A stretch of DNA of 64,000 bases from a virus. The notes beneath the pieces are model-generated. The model made no database searches and was not told the origin of the DNA. It saw only the letters and a program-made list of their open reading frames with translations. The stretch lies in the IMG/VR virus record IMGVR_UViG_3300042878_000903, positions 45,969-109,968 of that record; one strand, given 5' to 3'. Each line of letters opens with the position of its first letter. Position 1 is the first letter of the stretch. Shown in pieces: positions 3,850 through 63,129 of the stretch. Position numbers and translations under genes: made by a program.

Positions 3850-3851
3850 TA

Positions 3852-5417: not shown

Positions 5418-5472
5418 TGTTTACCTTAATGTCAGTAGGCCATGAATATTCATGGCCTATAGTCTAAATCAA

Positions 5473-5500
5473 ATTGTAGCATAGTGCTACATATTGTCAA
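5473..5500 (-). promoter_or_regulatory. sigma70-type promoter for the replication operon
   Basis: TTGACA-16-TACAAT with extended TG, followed by a 24-bp perfect palindrome at 5436-5459. Confidence 0.6.
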
Positions 5501-5503
5501 TAC

Positions 5504-5929: not shown

Positions 5930-5931
5930 TT

Positions 5932-6093
5932 TTACTCCTTTGGTTTTTCCTTTGGTGCCTCTAGTTCTTGAATTTTTAATGACAACTGAGTAATCTCGGC
6001 ACGAAGAACAGCAATACTTGTCTCATATTGTGAGACAATTTCTCCAATACGTTGCTGTAATGCTGTTACAATTAATTCTAATCTATTATCCAT
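5932..6093 (-). CDS. small coiled-coil protein
   Basis: Not in ORF track; MDNRLELIVTALQQRIGEIVSQYETSIAVLRAEITQL... Confidence 0.65.
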   Translation of the reverse strand: MDNRLELIVTALQQRIGEIVSQYETSIAVLRAEITQLSLKIQELEAPKEKPKE

Positions 6094-8621: not shown

Positions 8622-9508
8622 TATAAAAATCCTAAGTCTATCTTATATTCAATGTCCATTTCTATTCCAAGTGTTTTAACTAATGGGGTAGACAAGACTG
8701 ATCTACTAATTAAACCATATTGGCTATTATATCTGTCTTCATCATTTAATCTTAGCCCGTCTAATAAAACATTTGTAGCCCCTGAAACCTTAGCCTTAGC
8801 CCCTATTTCTATTATAGTAATTTGAGAAAAGTCTGTTGCTCCAGCGGATGAAAATGTAGAGTTAAATAGGCTAGATAACTTAAGTGATAAAATTTTATGT
8901 CCTATAGACGTTGTTGCTGCAAATCTTATTTCTTTATAATTGGTTGGTGAGCTATAAAATCTAACATAAATATAATCTAGGTTTAAATCTGTTTGATAAA
9001 AAGCAAGGGAAATTGAATCATCCACTCCGTATCCAGCAAGATCAAAAACGGTGTCTAGGCTGTATGATTTTGATTGATTGCTTGCTGCGGTAATAGAAAA
9101 ATATGAAGAGCCTATTCTGGGAGTTGGAGTTGAAACTGATATTGGCTGTTCACCATTTGAATCTTTCCAGCTTGTTGTGTTTTCAAAAGAAGATATGTAT
9201 TTAGATGAATAGTCTGTATTTTGCAAAAACCCAGTAGGGAAAATTCCAATTTCTGATATTATTCCTTCAACATCTGTTGGTAGGGTGGTCTTATAAACTA
9301 CGGAATATGTTGTTACTCCATTTGTTGTATTTGTTTGTATGTCAGAACTTCCAAGGAAAACTCCTGATCGATAAAATTCAAATTGCATGTCTGAGTCATT
9401 TACAGTTGGGGCTTGAGACCCTATTCCTACTGCAATGTCTTTTTGATTAAAATTAAGTCCGCTTGCCAAATAAGATGTTATAAACCTTTTACCAAATTTT
9501 GTTATCAT
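8621..9508 (-). CDS. minor tail/baseplate protein
   Basis: ITKFGKRFI...AVGIG...ISEIGIF pattern; tail-module position. Confidence 0.6.
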   Translation of the reverse strand: MITKFGKRFITSYLASGLNFNQKDIAVGIGSQAPTVNDSDMQFEFYRSGVFLGSSDIQTNTTNGVTTYSVVYKTTLPTDVEGIISEIGIFPTGFLQNTDYSSKYISSFENTTSWKDSNGEQPISVSTPTPRIGSSYFSITAASNQSKSYSLDTVFDLAGYGVDDSISLAFYQTDLNLDYIYVRFYSSPTNYKEIRFAATTSIGHKILSLKLSSLFNSTFSSAGATDFSQITIIEIGAKAKVSGATNVLLDGLRLNDEDRYNSQYGLISRSVLSTPLVKTLGIEMDIEYKIDLGFL

Positions 9509-9915
9509 ATTATCATTACTCCCTTTACAATCTCTCCAACACTATTTTTAACTTCAAAAGTAACTCTAAGCAGCCTATTATTATTCCCATCGTAATATAT
9601 TTCTGGATCGGTTATTGTTTGGCCAGAAGAATATCTTTTTCCAGTTGTTCCAATTAAAACTATGTCCTCTAAATTTGGGGCATCCGAAGTATCTATTGGT
9701 TCATCTGGTGCGGTATCATCATCGTCATCTTCAACGTCTCCATTATCACCTGGAGATGAAGCAACATATGTTTTATCTACTTTATTAGTGTATATATTTA
9801 CAATATCATATTGATCGCTTTTTAATACGTCAATTAGGGGTGAGTCTTGGGGTAGCTGGACTTTAACTCCACCAGCAATTTGCGACTTTCCTATTCTTGG
9901 TTTTTTTGTAGCCAT
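9505..9915 (-). CDS. hypothetical tail-module protein
   Basis: ORF with its own leaderless-type promoter. Confidence 0.55.
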   Translation of the reverse strand: MATKKPRIGKSQIAGGVKVQLPQDSPLIDVLKSDQYDIVNIYTNKVDKTYVASSPGDNGDVEDDDDDTAPDEPIDTSDAPNLEDIVLIGTTGKRYSSGQTITDPEIYYDGNNNRLLRVTFEVKNSVGEIVKGVMII

Positions 9916-9935
9916 ATTAAGATTCTACCATTTCA

Positions 9936-12900: not shown

Positions 12901-13232
12901 GAAACGTTATATTTTGGTATGCTATTTGTAACATTTGGGTTTAATATAAAATAATTAATTCCTGCTGCCGAAGGTCTTCTTGGGTCTATTATGCTGGTTA
13001 ATGGAAATAATTTTTTAAATGGCTGATATGTTTTACCAGTAATTGGGTCTGTTTGAGTTGCAGTTTCAGCTGGTGTAGCCGTAACAGATGCATTTAAAAT
13101 TAAATCGTTCATATTATATTCTAGCCAGCATCCGCCTGACATTGAATATGAAGCAGATGTATTTAGTTTATCTAGAGTTGTTTGGCTTACTGATTGCATT
13201 ATACTTCTTCCAGCGAAATACTTACATCCCAA
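9936..13232 (-). CDS. large minor tail (hub/baseplate) protein
   Basis: 1098 aa after the distal tail gene; C-terminal NPIIETGDVV...YIVLDIEQ hub-like motif; true start may be 13199. Confidence 0.7.
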   Translation of the reverse strand: MGCKYFAGRSIMQSVSQTTLDKLNTSASYSMSGGCWLEYNMNDLILNASVTATPAETATQTDPITGKTYQPFKKLFPLTSIIDPRRPSAAGINYFILNPNVTNSIPKYNVSSDLPVRTYFSSPKNQYKFWVSPKSGGTTLSNFSFTVDYPISKTAVTNTILVKFETSYSKPSTWSIKIQDHAGTETTISTNGVVPDNGVFQLYWNGSSWSTTKFTTPSAPVNIKKIIVTVNTISVANSYLGIIEVGARYIQDVSNRIVSFQVSKTSSDDSSGIVPVGSVTSNALSMSLEGYDKRGIEYDKTMPFNKDNINLYKNVKVSPFNKIGDDVIPQGVFYIDSFTLSEFGDIDIQGLDGAKFLQEILAPDIVIQNAPSQAIIRRLLDSVGFTGYNFNTYGKGDANKVDSATIVPLYWFTEDTKTVWQHIQDLCRDTQMIATFDNNDILQFYPRDYLFDPTRTSGFKFRSESKGVNIPNIISLTKETVPSVKAVKVIYTPIISTNYQGSSDNLYVSPPAAIGAAALQTTLLATAPAETNADKGVVSLSPISIYSDLADTSFYNKAGYFLINNEIIEYDAIEFQYEPLSAPNTVIKKWITSDSDIAKFLGESKINSFKPTLRYRIKERNAFNATGKGIGVGDSHSVNIDELKNQWTGSKLNLSAKTNVEDQSVFSLRQTDGSGSLISRSLLTIVAPTASKEYYCASINPDVNFTSQKYFSIGTALFFKLAKGSNGRVTGEQFVSAGLGIGLDANNLNGYILKIGTSQNVANKGLNYRDVQLFKIVNGVETPVSDTQKTEEASITGVSGGEFYRVDVRVSQATTGQRIFKIKFNNAVITATDSAATTMGNKIALIGIQGESAFDYAYIASLKKEDFTGSYSYDNYGSYVGSATELKNVFGDFIAIGSASTLSSPWIKEFGPVAREIKKISTRYATRPGFVKYPQIILNPNVTLLGYDANSFGIDAYILNNTGAFVDLADGGQKSFIVVGETVAPLDPFEYLDPDLSATKNDEQVAFESMWIQKESEAKELSKWMRTQWSKQQTVIQIDVFPNPIIETGDVVEISYPNNMIYSTEDTGQTAGKYIVLDIEQGYSQAPSTKLTCRSIYV

Positions 13233-13648
13233 AATGCCTGTGCTGCATCCGCCGTTTTTTCCTTTACATTTCTTTTGATCATATTAAATGAGCATGAAGT
13301 AAAGCTTGCGGCAAAATCTTCGGTTCTGGCTGAGTTATAGGCTATTCTTACATTAAATGTTCCTTGGCCCTTAGCACTTAAATAAAATGCTTTTATATCT
13401 TCTGCTCCCCAGCCTGCATCTACGGTCATGGTGGAATATGACGGAACCATGCTCCAGGAGGTGGATATGTTCTTCTTATCGGCTATAAACAGCTTTCTAA
13501 GGCTTCCATTGGCCATCCTAGAGGTCTGCTCAAAGCGTTGTACATCTACGGATATTGGGGACCTATTATGTTCAGTTAATTTTTGCCATACGCTATTAGC
13601 ATCTTGTATAAACAATGCTGAGCCGACTGGTAATACTAAAGCTGCCAT
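13199..13648 (-). CDS. distal tail protein
   Basis: Directly after tape measure; RMANGSLR...W motif and C-terminal SISLEEV. Confidence 0.65.
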   Translation of the reverse strand: MAALVLPVGSALFIQDANSVWQKLTEHNRSPISVDVQRFEQTSRMANGSLRKLFIADKKNISTSWSMVPSYSTMTVDAGWGAEDIKAFYLSAKGQGTFNVRIAYNSARTEDFAASFTSCSFNMIKRNVKEKTADAAQAFWDVSISLEEV

Positions 13649-16600
13649 TATATATTCTTCCCTTGTCCAACCATTTTAACATTAACTTTAGCCTTTTGTC
13701 CAATAACAACTTCTGCTTTTTTAATAATCATATTTGATAATGCCTCAACATCCATTCCATCAGATGCGTATATGTTTTGATTTACAACATATGATGCTCC
13801 AATTGCTCCATCGCCTTTTACATTATATGACCTCTTGTCAAAGCTATATCTTGGAGATGCGGCAGCCAATGTATTCATAACATCGTTTGGCATAATATTG
13901 GCACGATTTTTTAAGTGAACAAACTCTGGTCCCTTTTCTCCAACAAGATACATTCCGCTAGCGCCACCCTGTACGCCAGCAGCAGCTTTACCCATGAAAA
14001 CAATATTTCCATTTGTTTTGCTCTTGCCATACCTTTGACCATTCCAAATAAAGGTCTCACCTATTTGTAGGTCTTGGTTATTTGCAATTGATCTTCTAGC
14101 CTGTGCATTTAAAACCTTTGTCTTAACTCCATTAAATTCTTTTTCTTCCATTGCATTTGAATAATTTCCTGAAACAGCAATATCTTTTCTTAATGCTGGC
14201 TTGCCATTTACACCCTTTACCGCATCTACAACATCTTTAAGAGATGCTCCGCCTTTAATGCTATTTGCAAGTGCTTCATTTACAGCAGATCCCGCTCCCG
14301 ATTTTGCCAATATGCTTAGTGCATTTGCTTGTGGAGAAACTGGAATTTTATTAGTTACTACTTTTCCACCTTCATAATTTGAATACTCGGTGTATCTTGG
14401 CATTTTTTCGCCAGTAGCAGCTTCTACTGCAGCTACTAATCCTGCTGCTGCTTCTTTATTTGTTTTAACATAATCTTCTACAGATTTACCAGCAGCTTGT
14501 GCATTACCATAAAGCGCAGTCATGGAGTTATTAACTTTGTCTATTGCTGCAATTGCTTCAGCTTGTTTTTTGCGGTACGAATCTAGACTTTCTCCAGCAA
14601 GTGCTGCGCTATCTGCAAGGTCCTGTTGTTTATTTCCAAGAGCTTCGATGGCGGCCTTAAGAGGTGCATTTGCTGCTTCAGTTGCCTTATCAATAGCTTT
14701 TGATTGCGACTCTGTTTGTTGTTGACTTGTTAATGATTCTAAATCAAGTCTAAGCTCTTGAGACTTTTGAGTATCTCCAGTTGCTTCAGCATTTTGCATT
14801 GCAAGTCTAGTCTTTTCAATTTGTCTGCCAAGATCCGCATCTGCTTGTGCGGCAGATAATGCTTTCTTTCTAGCTTCTGCCAGTTTATTATTTGCTTCAA
14901 TTTGCTTGTTAAGTGAAGACAACTTATCTCTATCAGATATTTGCTGTGAAACTGTTTGTCCCTTTAGTGCTTTTGTATAAGACTTAATCTTATCTTCTAG
15001 CTTAGCAAGTGCACTATATTGTTTCGATAGAAGCCCGTCTTTGCTTGAATTTGTTGCCACTACAGATGTATTTATAGCTGCAAATGAATCGGCAATTAAT
15101 TTTGTTTGTGCAGCATTTAATTGAGAAAGATCTCCAGTAAATCCTTGCGCCTGCAGCCTAATCTTTTCCCACACACTTACAACCGTATCAGATCCATTAA
15201 TCATTTTCTTAACCTCTGGATTTGTTTTGGCCATTTCATCAACTGTTCCCTGAGTAATTACTGCCCCAGCTTCTTTTGATTTATTTATTTGATCAAGCAT
15301 TATTTTTTCAGCTTCTGCATAACTGAGAGACTTTGTTTTTCCAGTTAAATCTTTTGCTACTAGTCTTTCTCTCTTTGCGATTAAATCATTAATTCCAGTC
15401 TCGGTAGCCATAAGAGCTGTGTTTAATGATGCTGCTTTTTCTTTATTTCCTTGGTCTTTTGTATCAGCCCCAAAACTTGTAACTGCAGAAACTGCAGCAG
15501 TTTGAGGATCTGTAATTGCTTTAAATGCTGCATTGCCAAGTGTTGCAGTAATTGATTGGTCTTTCTTATTTGAAAGCTGAAGCATTGTATATACTTTCTT
15601 GGTTGCTTCTTCTGCAGACATCCCAGCAGCAATTAACTGCTCTTTAATTCTTCGAACTGCATCTGGAACCTTATTAGATGGCTGTCTATCTAGTGCCTTA
15701 ATCTGTTCACCAAATGTTTCTTTTACTTCAATCTTTAATTTTTTGTATTCTGCAATAGTCATTTGGAATGGAGTTCCGCCATCCTTCATGCTTTCGTAAA
15801 TTAATTTATTTGCATCAGCTAAATCTTTTGCGTCTTGTATAGTATCTTTAATTTTTAAACCAAAGTCTGTGAATCTAAGTCCAGCTTTTTTAGCTGCTTC
15901 TGCGGTTAAACCAAATGTAGCTATATTAAGAGTTTGTCCTTCTTTATAATTTTTCCATGCTTTGTAACCAGCAATTACTGCTACTGTTACCGCTGCTAAT
16001 GGTGCAACTAGTCCTGCTGCTGCTGCTGCAGTTGCGCCAAATCCTGCAGAAGCTAATCCTGCTGTTGCTGCGCTGGCCGCTGCACGTTTTGTGATCATTC
16101 CACCAATTTTTGGAAGAAGCATTTGGCCACCCATCATTCCAGCCATGCTACCCATCATTGCGCCATTTTGACCACCAAGTTTTCCACCTATTGCTCCACC
16201 TGCTGCCATTCCGCCCATCATACCAACCATGTTTGCGCCAGCACCTTGACCAAACTCTGGATTTAATCCTTTTGTCTTTAAGTATTGTATTGGGTGCATA
16301 ATTGCTGCTGTTGAGTATGCGGCATTAGTTTTAAATGAACTAGCCATTCTTGCAGCACGATCTTCTTTTCCACCTGGGAATGCTCCTGGTACTCCAGCAA
16401 CTAATATTTCAGAACCACCACGTTTGTAAGACGAACCAATGGATTTAGCTGCTGATGTTATAGAGTTTGCATATAATTTTGATCCGTCTACAAGTGATCT
16501 TATTGAATAAGATACCTGATCATTAATCATTCTTGTGCTTGTTATTAATTTATTTGAGCCTGCTTTAAGAGAAGAAGCTATTGATGAGAAAGCAGAGTCT

Positions 16601-19600
16601 ATAGATGAGCCTGCTCCTGATAAGGGAAGTTTTAATCCTGGTGCATAAGGGAAAGATCTTTGGCCCCCGTAAGATTTAGCTGCTTCAGCACGTGCTGCTT
16701 TTTCTGCAAGTTGTTCTGCACGTTTTGCTGGATTTCCACTAAGCCCATATGAGTCTTTATCATTCCTAATAACTCCGCCAATTTCATATCCTGGAATAAT
16801 TTTTCCACTTTGAAGTGGTCTAAATATTTCTGGTCCTTTTTCTCCAACAACATAATTTTGTCCTGGAGATACTGGCCCACCCATTTCTCTATTTCCTCTA
16901 ATATCAAATATTTTCTTTTTAAGCTCTTCTGTCATTGGGGTATTTTGTTTTGAATCCCAAGTTAAATATTTATTTTTTAATATGTCTTTATCTATTGGAG
17001 AAAGCTGTCTTATAATATTTCTGTCAGCAATTAAATCATTAGCAGCCTGTCTAATAATTGAATCTAGTACGTCTGGCTCAAGACCATGCTTTAAAGCACC
17101 AGTCTTTGGATCTTTAACATATCCGTACGGCTTTTCTTTTGCCATAGCCGCTGCAAACTTGTCATAGAATAATTTTTGTGTATTTTTTCTTAAGCCAGAA
17201 TTTGCAAATAATGTTTCTGCCATTCCTATTGAAAGTGAGTTAACTCCCCATGGCGCTGACTCATACATACTAGGCTTAGGAGCTCCAGTTGGTCCAAATC
17301 CTGCACCAATTCTTCTCATAGCTAAGCCCTTTAAAACATTGCCAATTATTCCTCCGTTATTAAACTTAGGCATCATGTGTGCCAGTGCGGTAGGTTCTCC
17401 ATTAATTTTTTCTATTCCATAATTACGATATGATCCCATGTACCGTGTACCATTGGCATCATTTGCTTCCATAAGTTTTGCTAAATCTGTTTTACCATAT
17501 GGGTTTAAAGCAGTCTCTGCTTGAATTCCCCTAGCAACTGGGTCAGTTGAATGTGCTCTTCTTTGTCCTGGTACATTTAAGCTTTCTAAATATTCTTTTC
17601 TTAAACGAAGTTCTTTGGCTATTGAAAGGTATTCTTTGTGTTGAAGCCTTGACCATTCTGCTTCTCCAATTTTTCCAGTACCAGATAAACCAGAAACTAT
17701 GTTTGTTCTAGCACGATCAGTTAATAGTGCTATTTTATCTGGAGGTACTTTGTTTACCTGTAAGAATCTGGTAAGTGAAGGTAAAGCCTGTTGAGATGAG
17801 CCATGCATTAAATCGCTTACAATGTCAGCTTTTTTAGCAGCACCATGAGAAAGAGCTGTATTAACACTTGCTCTTAATCTTCCGCCCCAATTTCCTACGA
17901 AATAATATTGCCTACTTAATTCTTTGGATGACGATCTAAGCGCAGTTCCAAAAACACTGTCTTGGTATGCTCTAGCTTCTGCACCAGACAAAGACATATC
18001 TCTGCCTCGAAGCATTTCTCTTGAAAGCTTTGGATTACGCTTAAATAATTGTGCTAAAATTTTGCCCATTACTGCTGGGTTTATTGCTCCATAATTAGAG
18101 GTTGAAAGACTAATCTTTCCGCCACCCATATTTCCTGGAAGTGGTCTTCCGTTATTTGCTGCATCTACTGCTGCAAATAGTTCTGGATTGTCTTGAATTC
18201 CTGGACCAAATACTGTTTCTTGCGGTGTAAGAAGAGCAGTAATATTACCACTAGATTTTTTATGTGTTGAAGGAGCGGCTGCAACAAGTGCTGCATTTTT
18301 TGGATCTAAAGATGCTTCTTGATTTAATACATATCCGCCCAATGGAACGCTACCCATTCTATCATCATACGAAATAGATGCAGGTCCGCTTACCCGAGTT
18401 TTATTTTGACCAAAGTCTTCAATTTTTCCGCCAGCATTAAATCTAGGTTTTGTTGTTTGAATACTATATCCTGCTCCAGAAGTTCTAACACCAAGACCAC
18501 GGGCAATAGAATCTACAAGCTTAGAAGTGTCTGACTTATGGAAAAGCTCTTTCATATTTGACTTGCCAGCTGCGCTTACTACTGGCTGAGATGTGAGCGG
18601 TACCATCCCTAAGTTTATGCTTCTTGCTTGAGCCGTAGCTACACCCTGTGCTGTTTGAGCTAGCATAACTTCTACTTGTCGATTTAATGCAAATATCTTG
18701 GCTCTAGCTGCCTCTACTGTAATTTTACCAGCCTGTAATTGTTTAACAATTAATGCTGTTTCGTCTGCTGCCAAAGAAGTTATCTTTGTCATTTGTGGAA
18801 GTAATGCTTGATATGAATCTGATAGTGATGCTGTTACTGTTCCAGTAGCAGCAATTTCAGTTTTAAGTAATGCTATTTCCGCCTTGGACTGCATTGCTAA
18901 TGCTGCAGTCATAGAATGCCACTTAGCTGCTTCTGCTGCAACTATTCCATTTGAAACTCCATTAACTGAAGTAACTCCAGGAATCCTTGGAAGGTCATCA
19001 CTCATGTATGTCTGTGGTGAATTTGAAAGTCTTAGGTTTACTGGCTTAGGCCCAGGAACAGTAGAGAATATTGTTTCGCCTGCCCTTTGTTCTGCAGTCT
19101 TTGATCCAGTTGGAATAACATGGGACATGTCTCTTGAATAAGATTTACCGACAAGTGGATTGTCTTTGTCTACAATTCTTCCTCCGCCTCGCATAACTGG
19201 ATTACCAGCTATTGTAGACATGCTGTTGCTAGTTGCAACGGTAGATGACATTGCGCTCTGTTTTAATTTTTCAAATGATGCTGCTAATGTTAAAACTGCA
19301 TCAGAAAATGTAGCTGCTGCCTTTGTGTCACTGTAGAATGATTGCTCTACATTTTTTGCAGCAGATGATGCTGCCATTAATTCTGGAGTTAATAACTTAA
19401 ATCCTGTCCCGCCCTTGCCAATGTTTTTAAGAGCAAGTATTCCTTTAATAATGTATCCAAAGAAGTTGGCAAGTACACCAGTTAACATAATAATAGGACC
19501 AGCAACTGCTGTAAGGCTTCCAATAAATCCTAATACTGCTTTAATTGGGCCAGGAAGGTTTCCAATAAACTTTACAATGCCGTCAATTGCATTTAATACA

Positions 19601-21147
19601 AATGTTCCAACTTTTAGGAACTGCTCTCCAATTACTGCTAAATCTGCCTTTACTGACTCTAATGCTCTTCTGTATTTACCAGATGCAGACTCAGTCATTG
19701 TTTTTAATTCTCGCTCAGATATGCTAGCAAGATCTTTTGTGCTGGCCTTCATCAAATCTAGTACCTGTAGTGTCTGGCTTCCTTCTTTTCCAAGGTTCTC
19801 AAATAGTGCGTTTATTCTTGCAAATTGAAACTTACCAAATAGTTGTTCAATTGCTCTTGCTCTTTGTAATGGCTCAAGAGAATCTAATGAATCTTTCAGT
19901 GCCATAACTGTTCCAGTTAGATTGCCAGCATTCTTTTCAACTATTCCGCCTAGATCAATGCCAAATCCCATGAACTGCTCTTTGGCAACCTTTGTTGGAT
20001 TAATTATAGATGCTAATGCAGACTTTAATGCGTTTGCTCCTTCTGAAGCATTAATACCACCTTCACGCATTGCAGTTAAATAAAGTGCAAGATCTTGTAT
20101 GTCTCCGCCCAATGCTTTTACAACTGGACCAGCTTTAGGAATTGCTTCTACTAAATCTGCAAGGCTTGTTGAAGTTTGGTTTTCTACTGAGTTTAAAAAG
20201 TCAATTGATTCTGCAAGCTCTTGTGAGTTTTGGCTAAATGCTGTTTGAATTGCAAGAGTAGCTTTCATTGCTTCTTGTCTATCAACTTCACCAAGTACTG
20301 CAAGTCTGGTTGTTTGTCTAGTAGATTCTAGAAGGTCTGCTCCTTCTTTTCCAGTTGCGGCAATGTCCGCAGCTAAACCAATCGTTTCTGTAAAGTTTGC
20401 GCCTAGGGTGGAAGCTAGCTCTCTAGACAATGAAGAAACATCTTTTCTTACCTTTAATAAATCAGCAGCTGATGTTGCTGTTAATCCGCCATAAACCTTT
20501 GTAAGTCTTACAAGACCTTCGTCTGCTTCTTTAAATGCTTTTGCAGCAGCCATTCCAAACGCTGCTAGCGGTACAGTAAGTCCTACTGTAAGCTGTCTAC
20601 CCGCCCATTGTGTATTTTTACCCCAGTTAATAAGTTGGTTTGATCCATCCATCATTACCTTATTCATGATAGATAGTTCTTGTCTTAATAATGCAGACTT
20701 ATTCTTGGTTACGTCTAGTCCAGATTGAACCATTACGTTATATTGCATTAACCCTTGAGCATTTTTGCCTAGTGGTTGTATGATTGAGTTTTCAAGCATT
20801 ACTTGCTGTTTAGCTAAGTCTCTAACTAATGAGCTAGTTTTTTGTGTATGTCCTTGCCAGGTTCTAAAATATTGTCCTAGCTTCATTCTTCCGCTATCTA
20901 GGTTCTGTCCGAACTTAGATACGTCTGAGGTTAGTGTTACGAAGTGTCTGGCAAACTGGCCAGTGGAGCGCATGGTTTCGTCAAACTGACGATTCATTAC
21001 TCCAACTTGGCTAGTTAAATTTTTATTTAAACCAATTGTTGTAGCTTGAAGTTTTAGAAGTTGGGAGGTCACCGCTTGTAACTGCGCTGTTAGGCTACTA
21101 AAATTAGCCGTCGCAGTTATGTTGGTAACTATATTTTGATCTGCCAA
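13648..21147 (-). CDS. tape measure protein
   Basis: 2499 aa, Ala/Gly-rich, TP901-like core (LTVGLTVPL..., AGNALK-like EGANALKS), TM segments, VGEKGPE motifs; TTG start. Confidence 0.93.
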   Translation of the reverse strand: MADQNIVTNITATANFSSLTAQLQAVTSQLLKLQATTIGLNKNLTSQVGVMNRQFDETMRSTGQFARHFVTLTSDVSKFGQNLDSGRMKLGQYFRTWQGHTQKTSSLVRDLAKQQVMLENSIIQPLGKNAQGLMQYNVMVQSGLDVTKNKSALLRQELSIMNKVMMDGSNQLINWGKNTQWAGRQLTVGLTVPLAAFGMAAAKAFKEADEGLVRLTKVYGGLTATSAADLLKVRKDVSSLSRELASTLGANFTETIGLAADIAATGKEGADLLESTRQTTRLAVLGEVDRQEAMKATLAIQTAFSQNSQELAESIDFLNSVENQTSTSLADLVEAIPKAGPVVKALGGDIQDLALYLTAMREGGINASEGANALKSALASIINPTKVAKEQFMGFGIDLGGIVEKNAGNLTGTVMALKDSLDSLEPLQRARAIEQLFGKFQFARINALFENLGKEGSQTLQVLDLMKASTKDLASISERELKTMTESASGKYRRALESVKADLAVIGEQFLKVGTFVLNAIDGIVKFIGNLPGPIKAVLGFIGSLTAVAGPIIMLTGVLANFFGYIIKGILALKNIGKGGTGFKLLTPELMAASSAAKNVEQSFYSDTKAAATFSDAVLTLAASFEKLKQSAMSSTVATSNSMSTIAGNPVMRGGGRIVDKDNPLVGKSYSRDMSHVIPTGSKTAEQRAGETIFSTVPGPKPVNLRLSNSPQTYMSDDLPRIPGVTSVNGVSNGIVAAEAAKWHSMTAALAMQSKAEIALLKTEIAATGTVTASLSDSYQALLPQMTKITSLAADETALIVKQLQAGKITVEAARAKIFALNRQVEVMLAQTAQGVATAQARSINLGMVPLTSQPVVSAAGKSNMKELFHKSDTSKLVDSIARGLGVRTSGAGYSIQTTKPRFNAGGKIEDFGQNKTRVSGPASISYDDRMGSVPLGGYVLNQEASLDPKNAALVAAAPSTHKKSSGNITALLTPQETVFGPGIQDNPELFAAVDAANNGRPLPGNMGGGKISLSTSNYGAINPAVMGKILAQLFKRNPKLSREMLRGRDMSLSGAEARAYQDSVFGTALRSSSKELSRQYYFVGNWGGRLRASVNTALSHGAAKKADIVSDLMHGSSQQALPSLTRFLQVNKVPPDKIALLTDRARTNIVSGLSGTGKIGEAEWSRLQHKEYLSIAKELRLRKEYLESLNVPGQRRAHSTDPVARGIQAETALNPYGKTDLAKLMEANDANGTRYMGSYRNYGIEKINGEPTALAHMMPKFNNGGIIGNVLKGLAMRRIGAGFGPTGAPKPSMYESAPWGVNSLSIGMAETLFANSGLRKNTQKLFYDKFAAAMAKEKPYGYVKDPKTGALKHGLEPDVLDSIIRQAANDLIADRNIIRQLSPIDKDILKNKYLTWDSKQNTPMTEELKKKIFDIRGNREMGGPVSPGQNYVVGEKGPEIFRPLQSGKIIPGYEIGGVIRNDKDSYGLSGNPAKRAEQLAEKAARAEAAKSYGGQRSFPYAPGLKLPLSGAGSSIDSAFSSIASSLKAGSNKLITSTRMINDQVSYSIRSLVDGSKLYANSITSAAKSIGSSYKRGGSEILVAGVPGAFPGGKEDRAARMASSFKTNAAYSTAAIMHPIQYLKTKGLNPEFGQGAGANMVGMMGGMAAGGAIGGKLGGQNGAMMGSMAGMMGGQMLLPKIGGMITKRAAASAATAGLASAGFGATAAAAAGLVAPLAAVTVAVIAGYKAWKNYKEGQTLNIATFGLTAEAAKKAGLRFTDFGLKIKDTIQDAKDLADANKLIYESMKDGGTPFQMTIAEYKKLKIEVKETFGEQIKALDRQPSNKVPDAVRRIKEQLIAAGMSAEEATKKVYTMLQLSNKKDQSITATLGNAAFKAITDPQTAAVSAVTSFGADTKDQGNKEKAASLNTALMATETGINDLIAKRERLVAKDLTGKTKSLSYAEAEKIMLDQINKSKEAGAVITQGTVDEMAKTNPEVKKMINGSDTVVSVWEKIRLQAQGFTGDLSQLNAAQTKLIADSFAAINTSVVATNSSKDGLLSKQYSALAKLEDKIKSYTKALKGQTVSQQISDRDKLSSLNKQIEANNKLAEARKKALSAAQADADLGRQIEKTRLAMQNAEATGDTQKSQELRLDLESLTSQQQTESQSKAIDKATEAANAPLKAAIEALGNKQQDLADSAALAGESLDSYRKKQAEAIAAIDKVNNSMTALYGNAQAAGKSVEDYVKTNKEAAAGLVAAVEAATGEKMPRYTEYSNYEGGKVVTNKIPVSPQANALSILAKSGAGSAVNEALANSIKGGASLKDVVDAVKGVNGKPALRKDIAVSGNYSNAMEEKEFNGVKTKVLNAQARRSIANNQDLQIGETFIWNGQRYGKSKTNGNIVFMGKAAAGVQGGASGMYLVGEKGPEFVHLKNRANIMPNDVMNTLAAASPRYSFDKRSYNVKGDGAIGASYVVNQNIYASDGMDVEALSNMIIKKAEVVIGQKAKVNVKMVGQGKNI

Positions 21148-56955: not shown

Positions 56956-57226
56956 TTATTAATTATACCAGTATATATTTTAGTTGACTGCTATTTAAGA
57001 TTTATCAAAATGTTAATAAATTTTTAATTTGTATGATACACGTATTTCAGATGTCCGTTTTGTCTATATAGTCCGCACATATATAAATGACCTTGAGCGT
57101 GAGTGTGGTGTAACTCACAAAAATAGTTTGTGAATACTAGCGAGTAACCCCCCTAAATGTCAGACCCCCCTGCTAGGATTATAGTATAAAGAAAGTAAGA
57201 AAGTCTTACTAAGAAAGGTAGTTAAA

Positions 57227-57409
57227 ATGACTACACTAATCCGAGAGATTACTCTCTCTAATGTCCGAGCCGATGAGGCTAATCTAATTGTCTGCGCTTT
57301 CTGCTCAGACTACGCAAGCGAAATGTTTTGCGGTAAATGTAAAGAATACAAGGGCTTAATGACCCTTGGTGAGTGGTTATCTTACACTCAGGAAAGTTGG
57401 GTGATGTAA
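57227..57409 (+). CDS. early zinc-binding microprotein
   Basis: CAFC...FCGKCKEYKGLM; RBS and promoter upstream. Confidence 0.7.
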   Translation: MTTLIREITLSNVRADEANLIVCAFCSDYASEMFCGKCKEYKGLMTLGEWLSYTQESWVM

Positions 57410-57558
57410 TGTTATCCGAAAAAACTTTTAATAAAATTGTTTGGGAATACCAAAATGGTGGCGTGGTTTCTAATCACCCCGAATTAACTACCTATGAGCG
57501 TAAGGTATTGCTACGCTACTTAATCTCTCTCCCTACTGTGACTAAGGTCACAGAATAG
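57409..57558 (+). CDS. early microprotein
   Basis: TAATG coupling; MLSEKTFNKIVWEYQNGG. Confidence 0.6.
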   Translation: MLSEKTFNKIVWEYQNGGVVSNHPELTTYERKVLLRYLISLPTVTKVTE

Positions 57559-57639
57559 GCGACAGCGTGTCGCTTGATAATGTCGGTTGCTAATGATAGT
57601 CTTACCTTAATAAACAAACTAACGAAAGAAGGACAGAAA

Positions 57640-57732
57640 ATGGATAAACTAAACGAGGCACTAGAGGCCTTACAACAAGCAAACAAAGTGTTTGCTGAAA
57701 TGTTCGACATAGACGAGAGCGAGGCTAACTAA
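57640..57732 (+). CDS. early acidic microprotein
   Basis: MDKLNEALEALQQANKVFAEMFDIDESEAN; RBS GAAGGA. Confidence 0.6.
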   Translation: MDKLNEALEALQQANKVFAEMFDIDESEAN

Positions 57733-57845
57733 TGTTATTTTTTGATTGGGTAGAGGATTATCCTCACATTGTTTTGCCTATCGTGTTAGGCACGATAACT
57801 ATAATTGCTATTGTCGGTGCTATTGTTAATGGAGGTAATAACTAA
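57732..57845 (+). CDS. early membrane microprotein
   Basis: Single TM helix; TAATG coupling. Confidence 0.55.
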   Translation: MLFFDWVEDYPHIVLPIVLGTITIIAIVGAIVNGGNN

Positions 57846-58006
57846 TGAAACTAACCTACTCAATTTGGCAAGGCTCTTTACAGAAGGGCACACTAACCGC
57901 TAAGAGCATTAAAGAAATTATCGCTCTAGTTAATGAATTAAACGAGGCAAACCCTCCGTTAAAATTCGAATACCTAATACACAAGATAGAGCAGGTGAAT
58001 AACTAA
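57845..58006 (+). CDS. early microprotein
   Basis: MKLTYSIWQGS...; RBS GGAGG; TAATG coupling. Confidence 0.6.
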   Translation: MKLTYSIWQGSLQKGTLTAKSIKEIIALVNELNEANPPLKFEYLIHKIEQVNN

Positions 58007-58179
58007 TGATGACTAAATGGGATACTATCCAAGCGGATATAGCAGACGCTTATGTCTATCTAGATGAAGAAGAGGCGTTAGATAAGATTAACGCTGAGGC
58101 GATTAGCGATAGCGATATCGTTAGCCTTGATGAAATAATCGAGAAAGAATTAACATTAGATTGGGAGGCATACGAATAA
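58006..58179 (+). CDS. early acidic microprotein
   Basis: MMTKWDTIQADIADAYVYLDEEE... Confidence 0.6.
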   Translation: MMTKWDTIQADIADAYVYLDEEEALDKINAEAISDSDIVSLDEIIEKELTLDWEAYE

Positions 58180-58331
58180 TGAACTTAGAATTGTTATTAG
58201 ATAGCGAATACTTTTCTCTATACATTAACGGGCTATGGCCTAATGGTGTCGGTATAGATATCCCGACATGGCTACTAGTTGGCTCTATTGGTTTTATTTA
58301 TTCTATCGCATTACTTAGGAGAGATAAATAA
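58179..58331 (+). CDS. early membrane microprotein
   Basis: MNLELLLD...IPTWLLVGSIGFIYSIALLRRDK. Confidence 0.55.
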   Translation: MNLELLLDSEYFSLYINGLWPNGVGIDIPTWLLVGSIGFIYSIALLRRDK

Positions 58332-58430
58332 ATGGCTAACCCTAGCGGATTTTATACCTGCCCTAATTGTGGCAGGTTAAATGCGGGCGCATATACTAAA
58401 TGCGTATGTGAGCAAACTCACAAAGAATAG
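58332..58430 (+). CDS. early zinc-ribbon microprotein
   Basis: MANPSGFYTCPNCGRLNAGAYTKCVC. Confidence 0.55.
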   Translation: MANPSGFYTCPNCGRLNAGAYTKCVCEQTHKE

Positions 58431-58696
58431 ACGGCGTGTCGGCTTGACAAAATCGAGCCGATCCCCCACATAGCTACGGGGTCGGGCGTGTCGTTAAGGG
58501 GGTGATATAAATCACCCTGGATTTTGTGGATAACTTTCGGGCGTGTCGTGGCGTGTCGGGCGTGTCGTCCACAGCCCTAATGTGATTAAGAACACATGAC
58601 TTGAGCGTCTCAAAATGTGGAATTACTGGCTAGTAAGTAGAGAATTGTCGGTGGCTTCCGCTATAATTGCGGTATAACGAAAGGAAGTGGCTAACA

Positions 58697-58894
58697 ATGG
58701 CTAACTTATACACAATAGAAAACCTTTTACAAGGTAAGCAATATCGCTCTAATTCTCTTAATGGAGAAATTATTAGCGGTGAAAAAACCGACCATTGGTT
58801 TGGTAATGATAAAGAAGCGTATCGTGTTTTAATTCGCACACCGCATTCTTATAAAGACCACTATCGCATAATTGCGGTTAAGGTAGGTGAATAA
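58697..58894 (+). CDS. early small protein
   Basis: Start at MANLYTIE after GAAAGGAAG RBS. Confidence 0.65.
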   Translation: MANLYTIENLLQGKQYRSNSLNGEIISGEKTDHWFGNDKEAYRVLIRTPHSYKDHYRIIAVKVGE

Positions 58895-59017
58895 ATGGGA
58901 TATGTAGAAATCTTTAGAATAAATGATGAGGGTGCTGGCTGGGTAGATTTATCCGAAGCAACACCCGCAGAAATGTTAGATTTAGAAATCGGATTATTTC
59001 AGGAAGGTGCGCTCTAG
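58895..59017 (+). CDS. early acidic microprotein
   Basis: MGYVEIFRINDEGAGWVDLSEATPAEMLDLEIGLFQEGAL. Confidence 0.6.
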   Translation: MGYVEIFRINDEGAGWVDLSEATPAEMLDLEIGLFQEGAL

Positions 59018-59093
59018 GGCGTGTCTTTCCCGAAATTGTCGGTGGCTTAGGCTATAATTTAACCAATAACAAACTACGAAAGGAAAACTATAA

Positions 59094-59225
59094 ATGGGAA
59101 ATCTAGCAGAAATAATCGGGGTCGCTTGTGATGAGTGTGGCGGTGCTGGCTTCGTATTCTTTGGTGATGAAAAGAATTATGATGTTGAAAGTTGCGATTG
59201 CGTTAAAGAAACATGGGGTTTCTAA
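59094..59225 (+). CDS. early zinc-binding microprotein
   Basis: CDECGGAG...CDC; GAAAGGA RBS. Confidence 0.65.
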   Translation: MGNLAEIIGVACDECGGAGFVFFGDEKNYDVESCDCVKETWGF

Positions 59226-59425
59226 TGTATAGACTAGATACTTACTATGACGGACAATTAGAATACACACACAAATTCGCTGACGCTTTACAAGCGTTTG
59301 AGGCTTTCGCAAAATGTTATGATGTCGGATTTGCTAACGAATTCGCAACATATAATTTATCTTTGCCAACGGGCAAAATGTATACTAAAAACTTTAATCG
59401 GATTGGATTGGTGTCGCAGAAATGA
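59225..59425 (+). CDS. early small protein
   Basis: TAATG coupling; MYRLDTYYDG. Confidence 0.6.
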   Translation: MYRLDTYYDGQLEYTHKFADALQAFEAFAKCYDVGFANEFATYNLSLPTGKMYTKNFNRIGLVSQK

Positions 59426-59613
59426 TGACCCGTAAAGATTATATTGCTACTGCTGAAATTCTAAATTATGCTAGTAATAAAATTCACCCTGCTGTTTTTT
59501 CTAAAGTCGTAAATGATTTCGCAGAAATGTTTGCGAAAGATAATGAGCGATTTGATGTAACAAGATTTCACAAAGCGAGTGGGTATCGTGTTCCTAACTT
59601 CTCTTCAAAATAA
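59422..59613 (+). CDS. early small protein (MTRKDY...DN.RFD..RF type)
   Basis: Motif common in phage early regions. Confidence 0.65.
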   Translation: MMTRKDYIATAEILNYASNKIHPAVFSKVVNDFAEMFAKDNERFDVTRFHKASGYRVPNFSSK

Positions 59614-59719
59614 AGTAAAACGAATTCAGGAATTGCGCCGTAGTAATGCGGCGCAACCTGTTCGCAATAAAAAAAAATACACACGCAAAATAAAACATAA
59701 AAAATCTGATCTAATATAA
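59588..59719 (+). CDS. basic microprotein, ArfA-like C-terminus
   Basis: Not in ORF track; GTG start; IQELRRSNAAQPVRNKKKYTRKIKHKK. Confidence 0.5.
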   Translation: MFLTSLQNKVKRIQELRRSNAAQPVRNKKKYTRKIKHKKSDLI

Positions 59720-59889
59720 TATCGGGCGTGTCGCAGCTTGCAACGCAGTCGGGCGTGTCGCCCGCATAGGTGCGGGGTCGGGCGTGTCGTTAAGAGTGTG
59801 ATTAAAAACACCCTGAAAACTGGGGTGTTTTGTAATAAATGTCAGTCAGACCTGATATACTATCAATTCAACCAACGAAAGGTCAACTT

Positions 59890-60033
59890 ATGAATATATG
59901 CGAAGACTTCCCATGCTGCGGGCACGAAATGAATGATTGCGATGGATCTCTTTATGGATCCGATGAAGCTATTAAGCAAGATATGTGGCGCATGATGTCA
60001 CGCATGGCCGATGCAGAAATGGGGGATTTATAA
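59890..60033 (+). CDS. early microprotein with CEDFPCCGH motif
   Basis: Start after GAAAGG RBS. Confidence 0.6.
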   Translation: MNICEDFPCCGHEMNDCDGSLYGSDEAIKQDMWRMMSRMADAEMGDL

Positions 60034-60062
60034 TGTCAGACCTAACCGATATAATTGCCCCT

Positions 60063-60785
60063 ATGGTAAAATTAAAAAGATCTAATGATAGAAAGGTGGC
60101 TAACCTTGTCACAAAAAATGGAAAGCAAGCCGCAATTGCGAACACGTTCGGATTACCCGCAGGAAAAGATTTTTCATGTCCTGGTGCTACGTCTATCTGT
60201 GAGACTGTTTGCTACGCTGGGAAACTTGAAAAACTATACAAAGCAGTAAAGGCTAACTTATTACACAATTGGGAATTGTTACGCAATGCGGACAATGACA
60301 CAATGGTGGCCCTATTGGATGATATGATCATAGATTTTATTGCTGATTGTGATAAAAAAAATGCGCCTAAGTTATTCCGTATCCACTGGGACGGAGATTT
60401 TTTTAACGATACCTATACATATGCGTGGAAGACTGTTATTGAAAAGCATTCAGATATTCAATTTTGGGTGTATACACGTGTCAAGGACGCAGCGCTTATT
60501 CTAAAAGATATATCTAATCTATCACTGTACTATTCAACGGATGATGAGAATAAAGAAATTGCATTCGATTTGAAAACTAATTCTAAAATTCGGCTTGCCT
60601 ATCTAGGAAAAACATTTTCTGCTACCGAAGATACAATGAAAGAATTAACGGGTAAGCCTGGCGCTAAGTGCCCTGAAAATATGAAAAGTATTCCGCTTAT
60701 CTCAAGCGCAGGCAGTGCGTGTGTATCATGTGGCCTGTGTGTTTATGGTAAAGCAGATATAAGATTTTCTGCGAGTAAAAAATAA
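60063..60785 (+). CDS. Gp88-like protein (radical-SAM-like Cys pattern)
   Basis: FGLPAG...SCPGAT..C...CYA, FRIHWDGDF, FWVYTR, C-terminal CP...C..C..C; probable leaderless start 7 nt after TATAAT. Confidence 0.75.
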   Translation: MVKLKRSNDRKVANLVTKNGKQAAIANTFGLPAGKDFSCPGATSICETVCYAGKLEKLYKAVKANLLHNWELLRNADNDTMVALLDDMIIDFIADCDKKNAPKLFRIHWDGDFFNDTYTYAWKTVIEKHSDIQFWVYTRVKDAALILKDISNLSLYYSTDDENKEIAFDLKTNSKIRLAYLGKTFSATEDTMKELTGKPGAKCPENMKSIPLISSAGSACVSCGLCVYGKADIRFSASKK

Positions 60786-60880
60786 TGTATGAGGTGATTG
60801 GTGTTATTGGCGGATCAATGATGATTCTTATATCTATTCTGCCAATTTTATTAGCCGCATATGTAATAACCAAGCTGTAA
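60785..60880 (+). CDS. membrane microprotein
   Basis: MYEVIGVIGGSMMILISILPILLAAYVITKL. Confidence 0.45.
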   Translation: MYEVIGVIGGSMMILISILPILLAAYVITKL

Positions 60881-61068
60881 CGGCGTGTCGGCTTGACAAA
60901 TTAGCAAGCTCCCGCACATATCTGCGGGGTTATCCACAGGGTTATGAGGGTTATCCACAACCCCTGGAATTGTGAGTATTATCACAAAAGCTGAGACACG
61001 CCCATAATGGATTAGGTGATGTCGGTGGCTAATGGTAAAATACTCTTATCCAACAACGAAAGGCTAAA

Positions 61069-61275
61069 ATGAAAACAGTAGAACACTCTCTTAGATTTAT
61101 TACAGAGTTAGATGAGACCAACCCAACCGCACAACGATTACTAGAATTAGATAAAGATATGCAGGCACAATTATTGGAAGGCATGCTACACACTTTACTC
61201 GTTCCCGATATTATGCCACTTATAGATAATCTAAACGCAGGCAACTCTTATGCAACACTAAAGGTTGTGAAATAA
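61069..61275 (+). CDS. early small protein
   Basis: RBS GAAAGG; promoter at 61020. Confidence 0.65.
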   Translation: MKTVEHSLRFITELDETNPTAQRLLELDKDMQAQLLEGMLHTLLVPDIMPLIDNLNAGNSYATLKVVK

Positions 61276-61550
61276 TGTTAGCAACTGCTATCGGGATACT
61301 TGACGCAACCAAAGATAGTATTTTTGACGATGAAATTATGGGATTAGCAGGCGAACTCCATGAACGCAGAAATGAACTATCAGATGAAACTTTTGCTAAG
61401 TATTTATTTATGTATTCCACAGCCCTATCTAGCAAAGTAGCCGACCTAGTAACTAAGGTCTGCCTAAGCAAAGAGGAAATGTCGGTGCTATGCGCTACAA
61501 TAGACGAAATGGACAACCTATCAGAAACTATACTAGAAGAGGATAAATAA
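61275..61550 (+). CDS. early small protein
   Basis: TAATG coupling. Confidence 0.65.
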   Translation: MLATAIGILDATKDSIFDDEIMGLAGELHERRNELSDETFAKYLFMYSTALSSKVADLVTKVCLSKEEMSVLCATIDEMDNLSETILEEDK

Positions 61551-61820
61551 ATGGGAAGCATAACTGCATTAGGAATACAAGATAGTGTGTTAGATTTAGA
61601 AACACAATTAGCCTATCACTTACAAGGTAATCATTACCCGCCCGTTCCAATATCTATGGTGCAACCTTGCATAGATGCTATTGACGCATACTATGATGAG
61701 GATTTTGATCGACAGATAAAGATGCCTGAAGGCGTATCTTATAAAGGATTAGATACAGCCCCCGCTCACGCTATCATAGACCAACACCACTTAGAGTTTT
61801 GGCTACCTGAAAGTGATTAG
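61551..61820 (+). CDS. early small protein (HLQGNHYPPVP...HHL type)
   Basis: His-rich motif; RBS GAGGA. Confidence 0.7.
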   Translation: MGSITALGIQDSVLDLETQLAYHLQGNHYPPVPISMVQPCIDAIDAYYDEDFDRQIKMPEGVSYKGLDTAPAHAIIDQHHLEFWLPESD

Positions 61821-61913
61821 CATCACACACTAATATTCTCAAATACTGAGATAAGGCTAGACTAATGTCAGACCCCAATGCTACAATACAACCTAACAAA
61901 GAAAAGAGGCAAA

Positions 61914-62093
61914 ATGACAATAGAAGGAAAACTCTATCAGGTTGGCGATTTATTCACCACCCTAAAGTCAAAAAGAACAGGTGTTATCAAAGAGATACAC
62001 CCACAGGCATCTGGCTCGGTGCGTGTGCTACTAGAAATGCCAACGAAAGAAACTCGTTGGACTTCAGTATCCGCTAAAACGCTACTGGGCTAG
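61914..62093 (+). CDS. early small SH3-like protein
   Basis: YQVGDL......TGVIKEI...VRV.L...RW; start at MTIEG. Confidence 0.6.
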   Translation: MTIEGKLYQVGDLFTTLKSKRTGVIKEIHPQASGSVRVLLEMPTKETRWTSVSAKTLLG

Positions 62094-62171
62094 TAATTTA
62101 GGGCAGGAGGGTCGTCAGACCCTCCTGCTATAATACTCATAACAACAACCAACCAACGAAAGGAAACACAA

Positions 62172-62594
62172 ATGGCAAGAGGCAAAGCAATACAGGTAAA
62201 AATCGCTACTACTAAGGTTATCAAAGCCTTAGAAACAAGATTAGCCAAATTAGAGGCTGACTATAAAAAGCAAGATGAAAACGAAGCAAAGTTCCAAAAA
62301 TCTATTGAGAAATGGAAAAAGGAACTTTTCTCTTATGCTATCGCCAACATCTCAAAGGCAGAAAACCTACGCACCAATTATCGTGAGTGGACAAAAAATC
62401 TCAATGTAGATTTTGACCTAACAGTAAAAGATGGTGAGTTCCCTGCTGAGCCTCAAAGAGATTTTGAGCAACTACATGCTCATACTTATCGTGAAATGAA
62501 AGAGGAAATGGAAAATGCTATCCGTATTCTCAAAATGACCGATGAGGACACAGTAAGCACAAGCACTTACAACGCTATTGCTCGTTATCTCTAA
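62172..62594 (+). CDS. hypothetical coiled-coil protein
   Basis: GAAAGGA RBS; 140 aa. Confidence 0.7.
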   Translation: MARGKAIQVKIATTKVIKALETRLAKLEADYKKQDENEAKFQKSIEKWKKELFSYAIANISKAENLRTNYREWTKNLNVDFDLTVKDGEFPAEPQRDFEQLHAHTYREMKEEMENAIRILKMTDEDTVSTSTYNAIARYL

Positions 62595-62684
62595 TTAGAT
62601 AATCATAAGGGTGGGTGCGTGGGCGATAGACAACACCCACCCCTTATGGTATAATTTTTATCCCTACTAACAAAGGTAATACAA

Positions 62685-62918
62685 ATGCTAAACAGATTTA
62701 AGATAGAAATGTATGATGAAGTAAAGGCAAATGATTTAACGATTTATTCAGACGAAGGATACGATAACGAAAGTCTAAAAGAACTCGTGTTCTCAAATCT
62801 AAAACGATTTGATGGAAATGTTAAAGCTTTTGTATTTGATCAACAAAACAAAAAGAAAACTTCTGCAGCATTCTTTCCTATGGAAACAGTTAATTACGTA
62901 AAGTCTCTCTGTAAATAA
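62685..62918 (+). CDS. hypothetical protein
   Basis: TAGACA-17-TATAAT promoter (62627-62655) and RBS. Confidence 0.6.
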   Translation: MLNRFKIEMYDEVKANDLTIYSDEGYDNESLKELVFSNLKRFDGNVKAFVFDQQNKKKTSAAFFPMETVNYVKSLCK

Positions 62919-63129
62919 TCTTAGGGCGGGCTTATCTATTTCCCCGCCCTATTTCCCTTAATTTGCCCGCAGAGCTGCGGGGTTATCCACAGTTTTAAGT
63001 GAGGCTGTGGATATCCCTGGAATTCTGTGAGATTACTCACACCGCACAATTCGGACATATTATAACTAATCCTAGACAATGTCAGTGCCACCTGTTATAA
63101 TAAATCTAACAACAAACGAAAGGTAAAAA

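Follow-up and report, generated by a model that had tools for sequence, protein, structure and literature searches.

Conserved cassettes of predicted host-regulator sites at the promoters of a presumed early gene block in an uncultured actinobacterial phage

Promoters of the PafBC type share the consensus tTGTCRgtg-8 nt-TannnT (PMC5656591), and PafBC is switched on by single-stranded DNA (PMC11804915). On either strand upstream of the -35 or core promoter, WhiA recognizes GACAC and is linked to sigma through WhiB (PMC10243135). In Mycobacterium tuberculosis, GACACGCC is the 8-bp consensus of both WhiA, by chromatin immunoprecipitation sequencing (ChIP-seq) and in vitro IDAP-seq, and WhiB2, by ChIP-seq; a WhiA peak lies at recA P1, and an earlier data set gave CGACACGCCGn (PMC13473873). 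We analyzed a 64,000-nucleotide stretch (the window) that forms the last 64 kb of the 109,968-bp IMG/VR virus record IMGVR_UViG_3300042878_000903 (36.7% G+C, rated complete by CheckV). The source is an uncultured lake phage of actinobacteria of ~110 kb. Between window positions 57104 and 63101 (the flagged region), cassettes of CRP-, WhiA- and DnaA-type words precede PafBC-type promoters. They probably act in cis to place the early promoters of the phage under the control of host regulators, because they match four host consensus elements exactly, are conserved in the manner of binding sites and keep a fixed, phased geometry. The phage would thus most likely tie its first genes to the state of the host cell.

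The initial annotation had described this region as densely tiled with DnaA, CRP and WhiA-like sites, and our recount over window and genome bore out its motif numbers in full. The whole genome has 13 copies of the WhiA-type word GGCGTGTC/GACACGCC, all of them in the window, compared with 0.32 expected; none of 100 shuffles reached 13. Eleven of these copies fall within 2.6 kb (58433-61002), including a trio spaced by 10 and 9 bp (58540, 58550, 58559). All four exact copies of the DnaA-type 9-mer TTATCCACA found in the window lie in the flagged region (58525 on the minus strand, 60930, 60951 and 62983), where a variant, ATATCCACA, is also present at 63006. Copies of TTATCCACA with one mismatch show no window-wide enrichment; only the exact copies and their clustering are exceptional. 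The four exact TGTGA-N6-TCACA palindromes of the window are again all located in the flagged region (57537, 58407, 60971 and 63026), together with copies bearing one mismatch (57104, 58581, 61812) or two (58501, 59797); seven copies have at most one mismatch, whereas 2.1 would be expected. Ten plus-strand sites of the form TGTC[AG]G-N10-TAnnnT start between 57158 and 63080, and an eleventh lies at genome position 521, past the record's end. The four clusters singled out by the annotation are found at the positions it gave, each upstream of such a promoter-like site. Densities in the early block are 5 to 57 times those in the remaining genome (promoter 57-fold, WhiA-type 12.5-fold, DnaA-type 7.5-fold, CRP-type 4.7-fold).

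The promoter element equals the PafBC consensus, is strand-specific and is located upstream of genes. The reading of the other words as DnaA, CRP-family and WhiA consensus sites is supported as well, on stronger grounds than those available to the initial annotation. The WhiA-type sites contain the GACAC core, correspond to the full 8-bp WhiA/WhiB2 consensus and sit upstream of the core promoter on either strand, and the phage's extended word GGGCGTGTCG is compatible with CGACACGCCGn. The CRP-type sites are 16-bp dyads with constrained half-sites, a free spacer and a helically phased position, as in CRP/GlxR sites. The DnaA-type word TTATCCACA is of the type used in the replication origin (oriC) of the host-type genomes described below. 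A Rex operator (TTGTGAA-N4-TTCACAA) was considered for the dyad and ruled out, as the flanks are uninformative and the inner bases do not fit. Likewise, GGCGTGTCGG was rejected as a cryptic PafBC element, for it has no TAnnnT at the 8-nt spacing.

We compared the cassettes with those of related viruses, a check that the initial annotation had proposed. More than 260 related IMG/VR contigs that encode a close relative of the GP88 protein carry them, and more than 118 viral contigs match a 19-mer from the cassettes exactly. The promoter motif is found 997 times on the plus strand and once on the minus strand of 80 related loci (871 kb). Plus- and minus-strand counts are 473 and 106 for GGCGTGTC and 207 and 60 for TTATCCACA, and there are 394 exact CRP-type palindromes (here one site counts for both strands). 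A de novo count of 8-mers upstream of promoters ranks GGCGTGTC first. The cassette downstream of the GP88 gene is present in 53 distinct versions, which follow two ordered designs. Type 1 begins with a stop codon, GGCGTGTC, hairpin 1, hairpin 2 (CCCGCA..TGCGGGG) and two TTATCCACA boxes 21 bp apart, and continues with CCCTGGAAT, TGTGA-N6-TCACA, AAAGCTGC, GACACGCC, 17 nt, TGTCAGTG-N8-TAnAAT and a ribosome site. In type 2, a hairpin is followed by TCGGGCGTGTCGTTAAG, a GTGAT..ATCAC dyad, CCCTGRAA, ~25 nt and the promoter. Conservation of the boxes is at least 95% when 43-53 distinct versions of cassette C are compared; the variable parts are the CRP dyad center, the promoter spacer and the loops of the hairpins, and compensatory changes are seen in hairpin 1. 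The matrix built from 314 distinct sites again reads TGTGA...TCACA, with an uninformative center and flanks. Invariant boxes set in variable spacers are, as far as sequence comparison can tell, the footprint of protein-binding sites under selection.

Two further words recur in the cassettes, and neither matches any regulator familiar to us. CCCTGRAA (window 60962 and 63015) occurs in its exact form CCCTGGAA 153 times on the plus strand and once on the minus strand of the related loci. The palindrome TTGAGCGTCTCAA (58601-58613) has a core, TTGAGCGT, that lies upstream of 61 of the 463 promoter clusters obtained when promoter contexts were dereplicated by downstream gene.

In these clusters the sites keep preferred distances to transcription starts estimated from the -10 element. 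Among 173 downstream-gene clusters, exact CRP-type sites start at -92 (24 clusters), -82 (41) and -72 (34), positions one helical turn apart, and additionally at -77 (19). Of 68 clusters with GACACGCC on the non-template strand, 44 have it at -53/-54; for the template strand the preferred positions are -46/-45 (40 clusters) and -87 (21). Pairs of GGCGTGTC are usually spaced by 43 or 49 bp and bracket hairpins. Such pairs surround terminator-like hairpins at 58433-58492 and 59752-59788 as well as in relatives; this bracketing is not explained by promoter activation and might represent a roadblock or insulator. A simple terminator scan misses the cassette hairpins because they have no T-runs, and RNA folding gave them modest z-scores only. 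The single weak match to known RNA families in the flagged region is noise.

The phage belongs to an actinobacterial setting, as the initial annotation had presumed: it encodes a WhiB protein, and its portal protein shares 56-59% identity with the portals of Streptomyces phages of the BE cluster (family Stanwilliamsviridae), to which the phage is, by this sequence similarity, kin. Its hosts are likely small acI-type actinobacteria with 44-47% G+C, as judged from WhiB, genome size and G+C content, katG and tRNA-Asn. We therefore refer to complete genomes of 1.3-1.5 Mb, from an even sample of the class containing Streptomyces and with 44-47% G+C in their dnaA-region loci, as host-type genomes; acI bacteria typically have genomes of such size and composition. 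At the nucleotide level, identity between phage katG and the katG of these genomes is 68-73%, and phage tRNA-Asn is 90% identical to that of three of them. A katG search of the genome collection returned only distant matches (55-62% identity) from many phyla and no host, and a near-identity search of the phage collection gave no match.

In each host-type genome we found an orthologue of Rv3676 (Crp) whose recognition helix (RETVNKALADFA) is identical, a WhiA whose C-terminal DNA-reading domain is near-identical to that of Streptomyces venezuelae WhiA (8DY7), and an adjacent pair of WYL genes resembling pafBC. Searches of the phage proteins for the DnaA C-terminal domain (DnaA_C), the Crp helix-turn-helix (HTH), the WYL domain and the WhiA HTH found none. 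The host-type oriC, in the dnaA-dnaN spacer, uses TTATCCACAG and ATATCCACAG boxes, and one of them contains a direct DnaA-box pair 21 bp apart, as in cassette C. PafBC-type promoters number 50 in host-type genomes and 7 in the control. The host-type recA promoter reads GACACGCC-N9-TGTCAGTG-N8-TACCTT followed by an SOS box, and the phage cassette is thus built like host recA P1. LexA boxes are absent from this phage genome. A DnaA-type word, TGTGGATA or TGTGGATG, precedes TGTCAGTG by 2-15 bp at several host PafBC-type promoters, so the pairing of DnaA with PafBC may also be a host design.

We propose that one or two stem-loops at the start of a cassette would end the upstream transcript and that an ordered set of protein-binding words would then lead to a promoter of the host PafBC (recA P1) type. 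These words are predicted sites of the host regulators CRP/GlxR (TGTGA-N6-TCACA), WhiA with a WhiB-type partner (GACACGCC) and DnaA (TTATCCACAG). Host CRP bound ~65-85 bp upstream and WhiA near -50 may help or gate RNA polymerase, and DnaA bound further upstream could provide a third input; we infer both the binding and the sign of these effects. Early transcription would then depend on the cyclic AMP (cAMP) state of the host, its cell-cycle or division state, the state of its replication initiator and the single-stranded-DNA alarm. A more elaborate version, which we regard as rather doubtful, is a multi-input circuit copying host recA P1, with PafBC, WhiA plus WhiB, cAMP-CRP and DnaA on one face of the DNA, that would also drain WhiA and DnaA as phage DNA multiplies and so arrest division and initiation. 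In such a circuit PafBC would report single-stranded DNA, WhiA with a phage or host WhiB the cell cycle, cAMP-CRP the carbon state and DnaA the replication state.

Several findings weigh against control by host regulators. The identity of the host is itself inferred. Host-type genomes show no enrichment of GGCGTGTCG (3-11 copies, compared with 5-22 in the control), exact CRP palindromes occur there at chance level, and these counts thus lend no support to a host regulon for the words in these genomes. The phage WhiB is a divergent Wbl protein and not clearly of the WhiB2 type. The sequences of the relatives are not independent samples, and absolute positions relative to the estimated starts may be a few bases off. 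Many GGCGTGTC copies are promoter-distal (-128 to -220) and flank hairpins, a placement not explained by activation. Finally, in the cultured relative BillNye, a Streptomyces phage, the PafBC-type promoter TGTCRG-N10-TAnnnT is absent from the whole record, and the 33 kb scanned contain no CRP- or WhiA-type cluster.

The initial annotation had offered three functions for these sites. Only a logic board reading host state gains positive support, from the fixed, helically phased distances that hundreds of relatives keep between sites and promoters; neither the decoy sponge nor the entry handles gain any, and a role as origin is likewise less supported. A sponge would mainly titrate host WhiA, and with it DnaA, off chromosomal targets, stalling division and replication initiation while copies of the phage DNA build up. 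Mycobacterial WhiA and WhiB2 indeed control division and replication genes (PMC13473873), one phage genome packs nine exact copies of CGACACGCC into 2.5 kb, compared with 3-7 in a whole 1.3-1.5 Mb host-type genome, and the promoter-distal copies beside hairpins and the tandem triple at 58540-58566 would suit this role. However, the sites are confined to the promoter cassettes of a single block at fixed phased offsets, whereas titration needs neither orientation nor phasing, and any titration may be a mere side effect of regulatory sites. Tandem arrays with 9-10 bp spacing are rare in the relatives (three distinct contexts), so the triple is not a conserved iteron or sponge feature. We consider a sponge improbable. 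Reading the triple as an iteron array was ruled out given this rarity and because no Rep-type gene was found among the phage proteins scanned. The DnaA-box pairs could alternatively recruit host DnaA to a replication origin, with transcriptional activation from neighboring promoters. Such a role is plausible because the phage encodes replication enzymes (DNA polymerase III alpha, a DnaB-like helicase and a DnaG-type primase; RecA is also present) and no recognizable replication initiator was found in it. The box spacing of 21 bp recurs in one host-type oriC, four exact TTATCCACA boxes lie within 290 bp in BillNye, and three DnaA-type boxes adjoin a 400-bp AT-rich repeat region at genome 2100-2560. 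That region, the better candidate, is outside the flagged region, while the flagged boxes are distributed among four or more cassettes, in each case in register with promoters and CRP-type sites, and cassettes C and D have no adjoining AT-rich unwinding element. An origin within the cassettes thus has a low probability in our view.

It is also conceivable that phage-encoded binders, for example among the at least 20 small early proteins, use the words as operators in the manner of the mycobacteriophage L5 stoperators. No early-block protein has an explanatory Pfam match, GGCGTGTC is asymmetric, mostly of one orientation relative to transcription and unenriched in host-type genomes, and CCCTGRAA and TTGAGCGTCTCAA lack a familiar regulator. 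The agreement of three words and the promoter with a published host consensus, exact in each case, is yet unlikely to arise by chance, and a scan of the phage proteins, which was not exhaustive, found no DNA-binding domain; we give phage binders only a slim chance, with the best prospects for the two words that lack a familiar regulator. Least of all do we expect the sites to be handles by which host proteins, such as DnaA at the membrane, would secure or protect the DNA that enters first, a role proposed for the DnaA boxes of T5. In favor of this idea, eight DnaA boxes occupy untranslated DNA of the terminal repeat that enters first in T5-like phages (bioRxiv 10.1101/866236), the left-end genes of BillNye are repeated at its right end, which we read as a ~2.3 kb direct terminal repeat, and the untranslated region of DnaA boxes and repeats at genome 2100-2560 closes the early block. 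The phage record is, however, linear and without end repeats, related contigs are permuted, and each cassette of the flagged region has only a few boxes, which are tied to promoters. Control of phage early promoters by host regulators accounts best for these exact matches and distances.

The untranslated stretch at genome 2080-2600, where the plus-strand early block meets minus-strand genes, contains the DnaA-type boxes ATATCCACAG, CTTCCACAG and ATATCCACAA (minus strand) within 40 bp, ~400 bp of AT-rich DNA with repeats (GTGGGCCAAAT..TTTACGA, ACTCCAC) and two CCCTGRAA words. This stretch could be an origin or a signal for DNA entry. The TTATCCACA cluster of BillNye is located among small genes at record positions 119428-119723 and possibly marks the origin of that phage. 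The idea that the DnaA box co-varies with host type was not supported, as BillNye uses TTATCCACA, the Escherichia coli type, and not the Streptomyces-type TTGTCCACA.

The flagged region is a block of ~23 small plus-strand genes without recognized function, which crosses the record's end and reaches genome position ~2076. A Pfam scan of the block matched GP88 and DUF932 only, leaving its small proteins unexplained. It is presumably expressed early in infection. Two promoters in the window, at 62604-62655 and 63073-63101, also match a sigma-70-type TAGACA-17-TATAAT with an upstream TG. The former lies 3' of a strong hairpin and has no PafBC-type element; the latter overlaps a PafBC-type element, and some promoters may therefore be dual. 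Elsewhere, genome positions 3000-20000 hold a redox and metabolic block with a KatG-type peroxidase, a glutathione peroxidase, a thioredoxin, a Cys/Met pyridoxal phosphate-dependent enzyme, an S-adenosylmethionine decarboxylase, a radical S-adenosylmethionine enzyme and several 2-oxoglutarate-Fe(II) oxygenases. Phage katG is of interest because acI bacteria depend on catalase.

Table 1. Cassettes, promoter units and tRNA genes of the phage (window positions, except where genome positions are stated).
Feature	Position	Strand	Elements
First cassette	57104-57179	+	CRP-type TGTGGTGTAACTCACA 57104-57119 (one mismatch); promoter TGTCAGAC-N8-TAGGAT 57158-57179
57537 cassette	57537-57602	+	exact CRP-type palindrome 57537-57552 at end of open reading frame; WhiA-type variant AGCGTGTC 57564-57571; promoter 57581-57602
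Cassette A	58407-58667	+	ordered CRP-type, GGCGTGTC, hairpins, DnaA box, promoter
Cassette A, 5' part			exact CRP-type 58407-58422; GGCGTGTC 58433; hairpins ~58441-58482; GGCGTGTC 58485
Cassette A, middle			palindrome GGTGAT-N4-ATCACC 58501-58516; DnaA box 58525-58533 (- strand); GGCGTGTC 58540, 58550, 58559
Cassette A, 3' part			CRP-type 58581-58596; palindrome TTGAGCGTCTCAA 58601-58613; promoter 58646-58667
59018 unit	59018-59058	+	GGCGTGTC 59018-59025 (~-47 from estimated start); promoter TGTCGGTG-N8-TATAAT 59037-59058
Cassette B (type 2)	59725-59861	+	GGCGTGTC 59725, 59752, 59781; hairpin CCCGCA/TGCGGG 59761-59776
Cassette B, 3' part			CRP-type 59797-59812 (two mismatches); promoter 59840-59861
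Cassette C (type 1)	60882-61041	+	GGCGTGTC 60882-60889; hairpin 1 60890-60910; hairpin 2 60911-60928
Cassette C, middle			two TTATCCACA boxes 21 bp apart (60930, 60951); CCCTGGAA 60962-60969; exact CRP-type 60971-60986
Cassette C, 3' part			GACACGCC on non-template strand 60995-61002 (-53); promoter 61020-61041
61812 unit	61812-61887	+	CRP-type AGTGATTAGCATCACA 61812-61827 (start at -82); promoter 61866-61887
Cassette D	62922-63101	+	hairpins 62922-62951 and 62966-62981
Cassette D, middle			inverted DnaA-type pair TTATCCACAG 62983-62991 / ATATCCACA 63006-63014 (- strand); CCCTGGAA 63015-63022
Cassette D, 3' part			exact CRP-type 63026-63041; promoter TGTCAGTG-N8-TATAAT 63080-63101
tRNA-Asn(GTT)	genome 12221-12294	-	
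tRNA-Arg(CCG)	genome 5174-5246	-	

Few freshwater bacteria are as abundant as actinobacteria of the acI type, which are difficult to cultivate; to our knowledge, their gene regulation is almost unstudied. The cassettes supply dense, conserved predicted sites for four global acI regulators, and thus testable motifs and ready promoter parts, as well as a signal for assigning hosts to uncultured phages. If PafBC, WhiA, CRP and DnaA do act together on one promoter, this would be an unusual form of multi-input control, and a lytic phage would read the alarm, growth and cell-cycle state of its host ahead of early gene expression. The placing of WhiA at PafBC-type promoters, recA among them, may then be a general actinobacterial design.

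We found no publication describing these cassettes in a literature search, and we compared them with the known systems they most resemble. PafBC (RecA-NDp, recA P1-type) promoters, known from mycobacteria and other actinobacteria, have the same tTGTCRgtg-N8-TAnnnT in place of a -35 element, a motif also present in host-type genomes, including at recA with an adjacent GACACGCC. The phage, however, packs ~11 of them into 9 kb, places its WhiA word 17 bp and not 9 bp upstream of the -26 element, and stacks CRP- and DnaA-type sites further upstream. Promoters co-activated by WhiA and WhiB (S. venezuelae sepX, the M. tuberculosis regulon) share the asymmetric GACAC(GCC) word upstream on either strand, and a Wbl protein, WhiB, is encoded by the phage; its core promoter is of the PafBC type and not a -35/-10 promoter, and many copies of the word lie far upstream or flank terminator hairpins. 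The 16-bp dyad with free center and helical-turn spacing is that of class I CRP promoters (E. coli CAP, actinobacterial Crp/GlxR), but the phage sites are centered at ~-64.5, -74.5 and -84.5 from the estimated start, not at -61.5 and -71.5, and are combined with WhiA and PafBC elements. The T5 injection stop region (bioRxiv 10.1101/866236) resembles the cassettes in having host DnaA boxes conserved in a non-coding part of the phage genome close to early genes; in place of its ordered series of ~8 boxes, each phage cassette has 1-3, tied to promoters. The PeSL cassettes of T4-type phages (PMC2839356, PMC4122927) show the same repeated terminator and early promoter between small variable genes, a likeness we draw because the same cassette follows different upstream genes in the relatives; the phage cassettes differ in bearing several host-regulator-type sites. 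The cassettes thus appear to be a variant of host-factor-dependent phage promoters and of mobile promoter-terminator cassettes, with a function suggested by their sequence.

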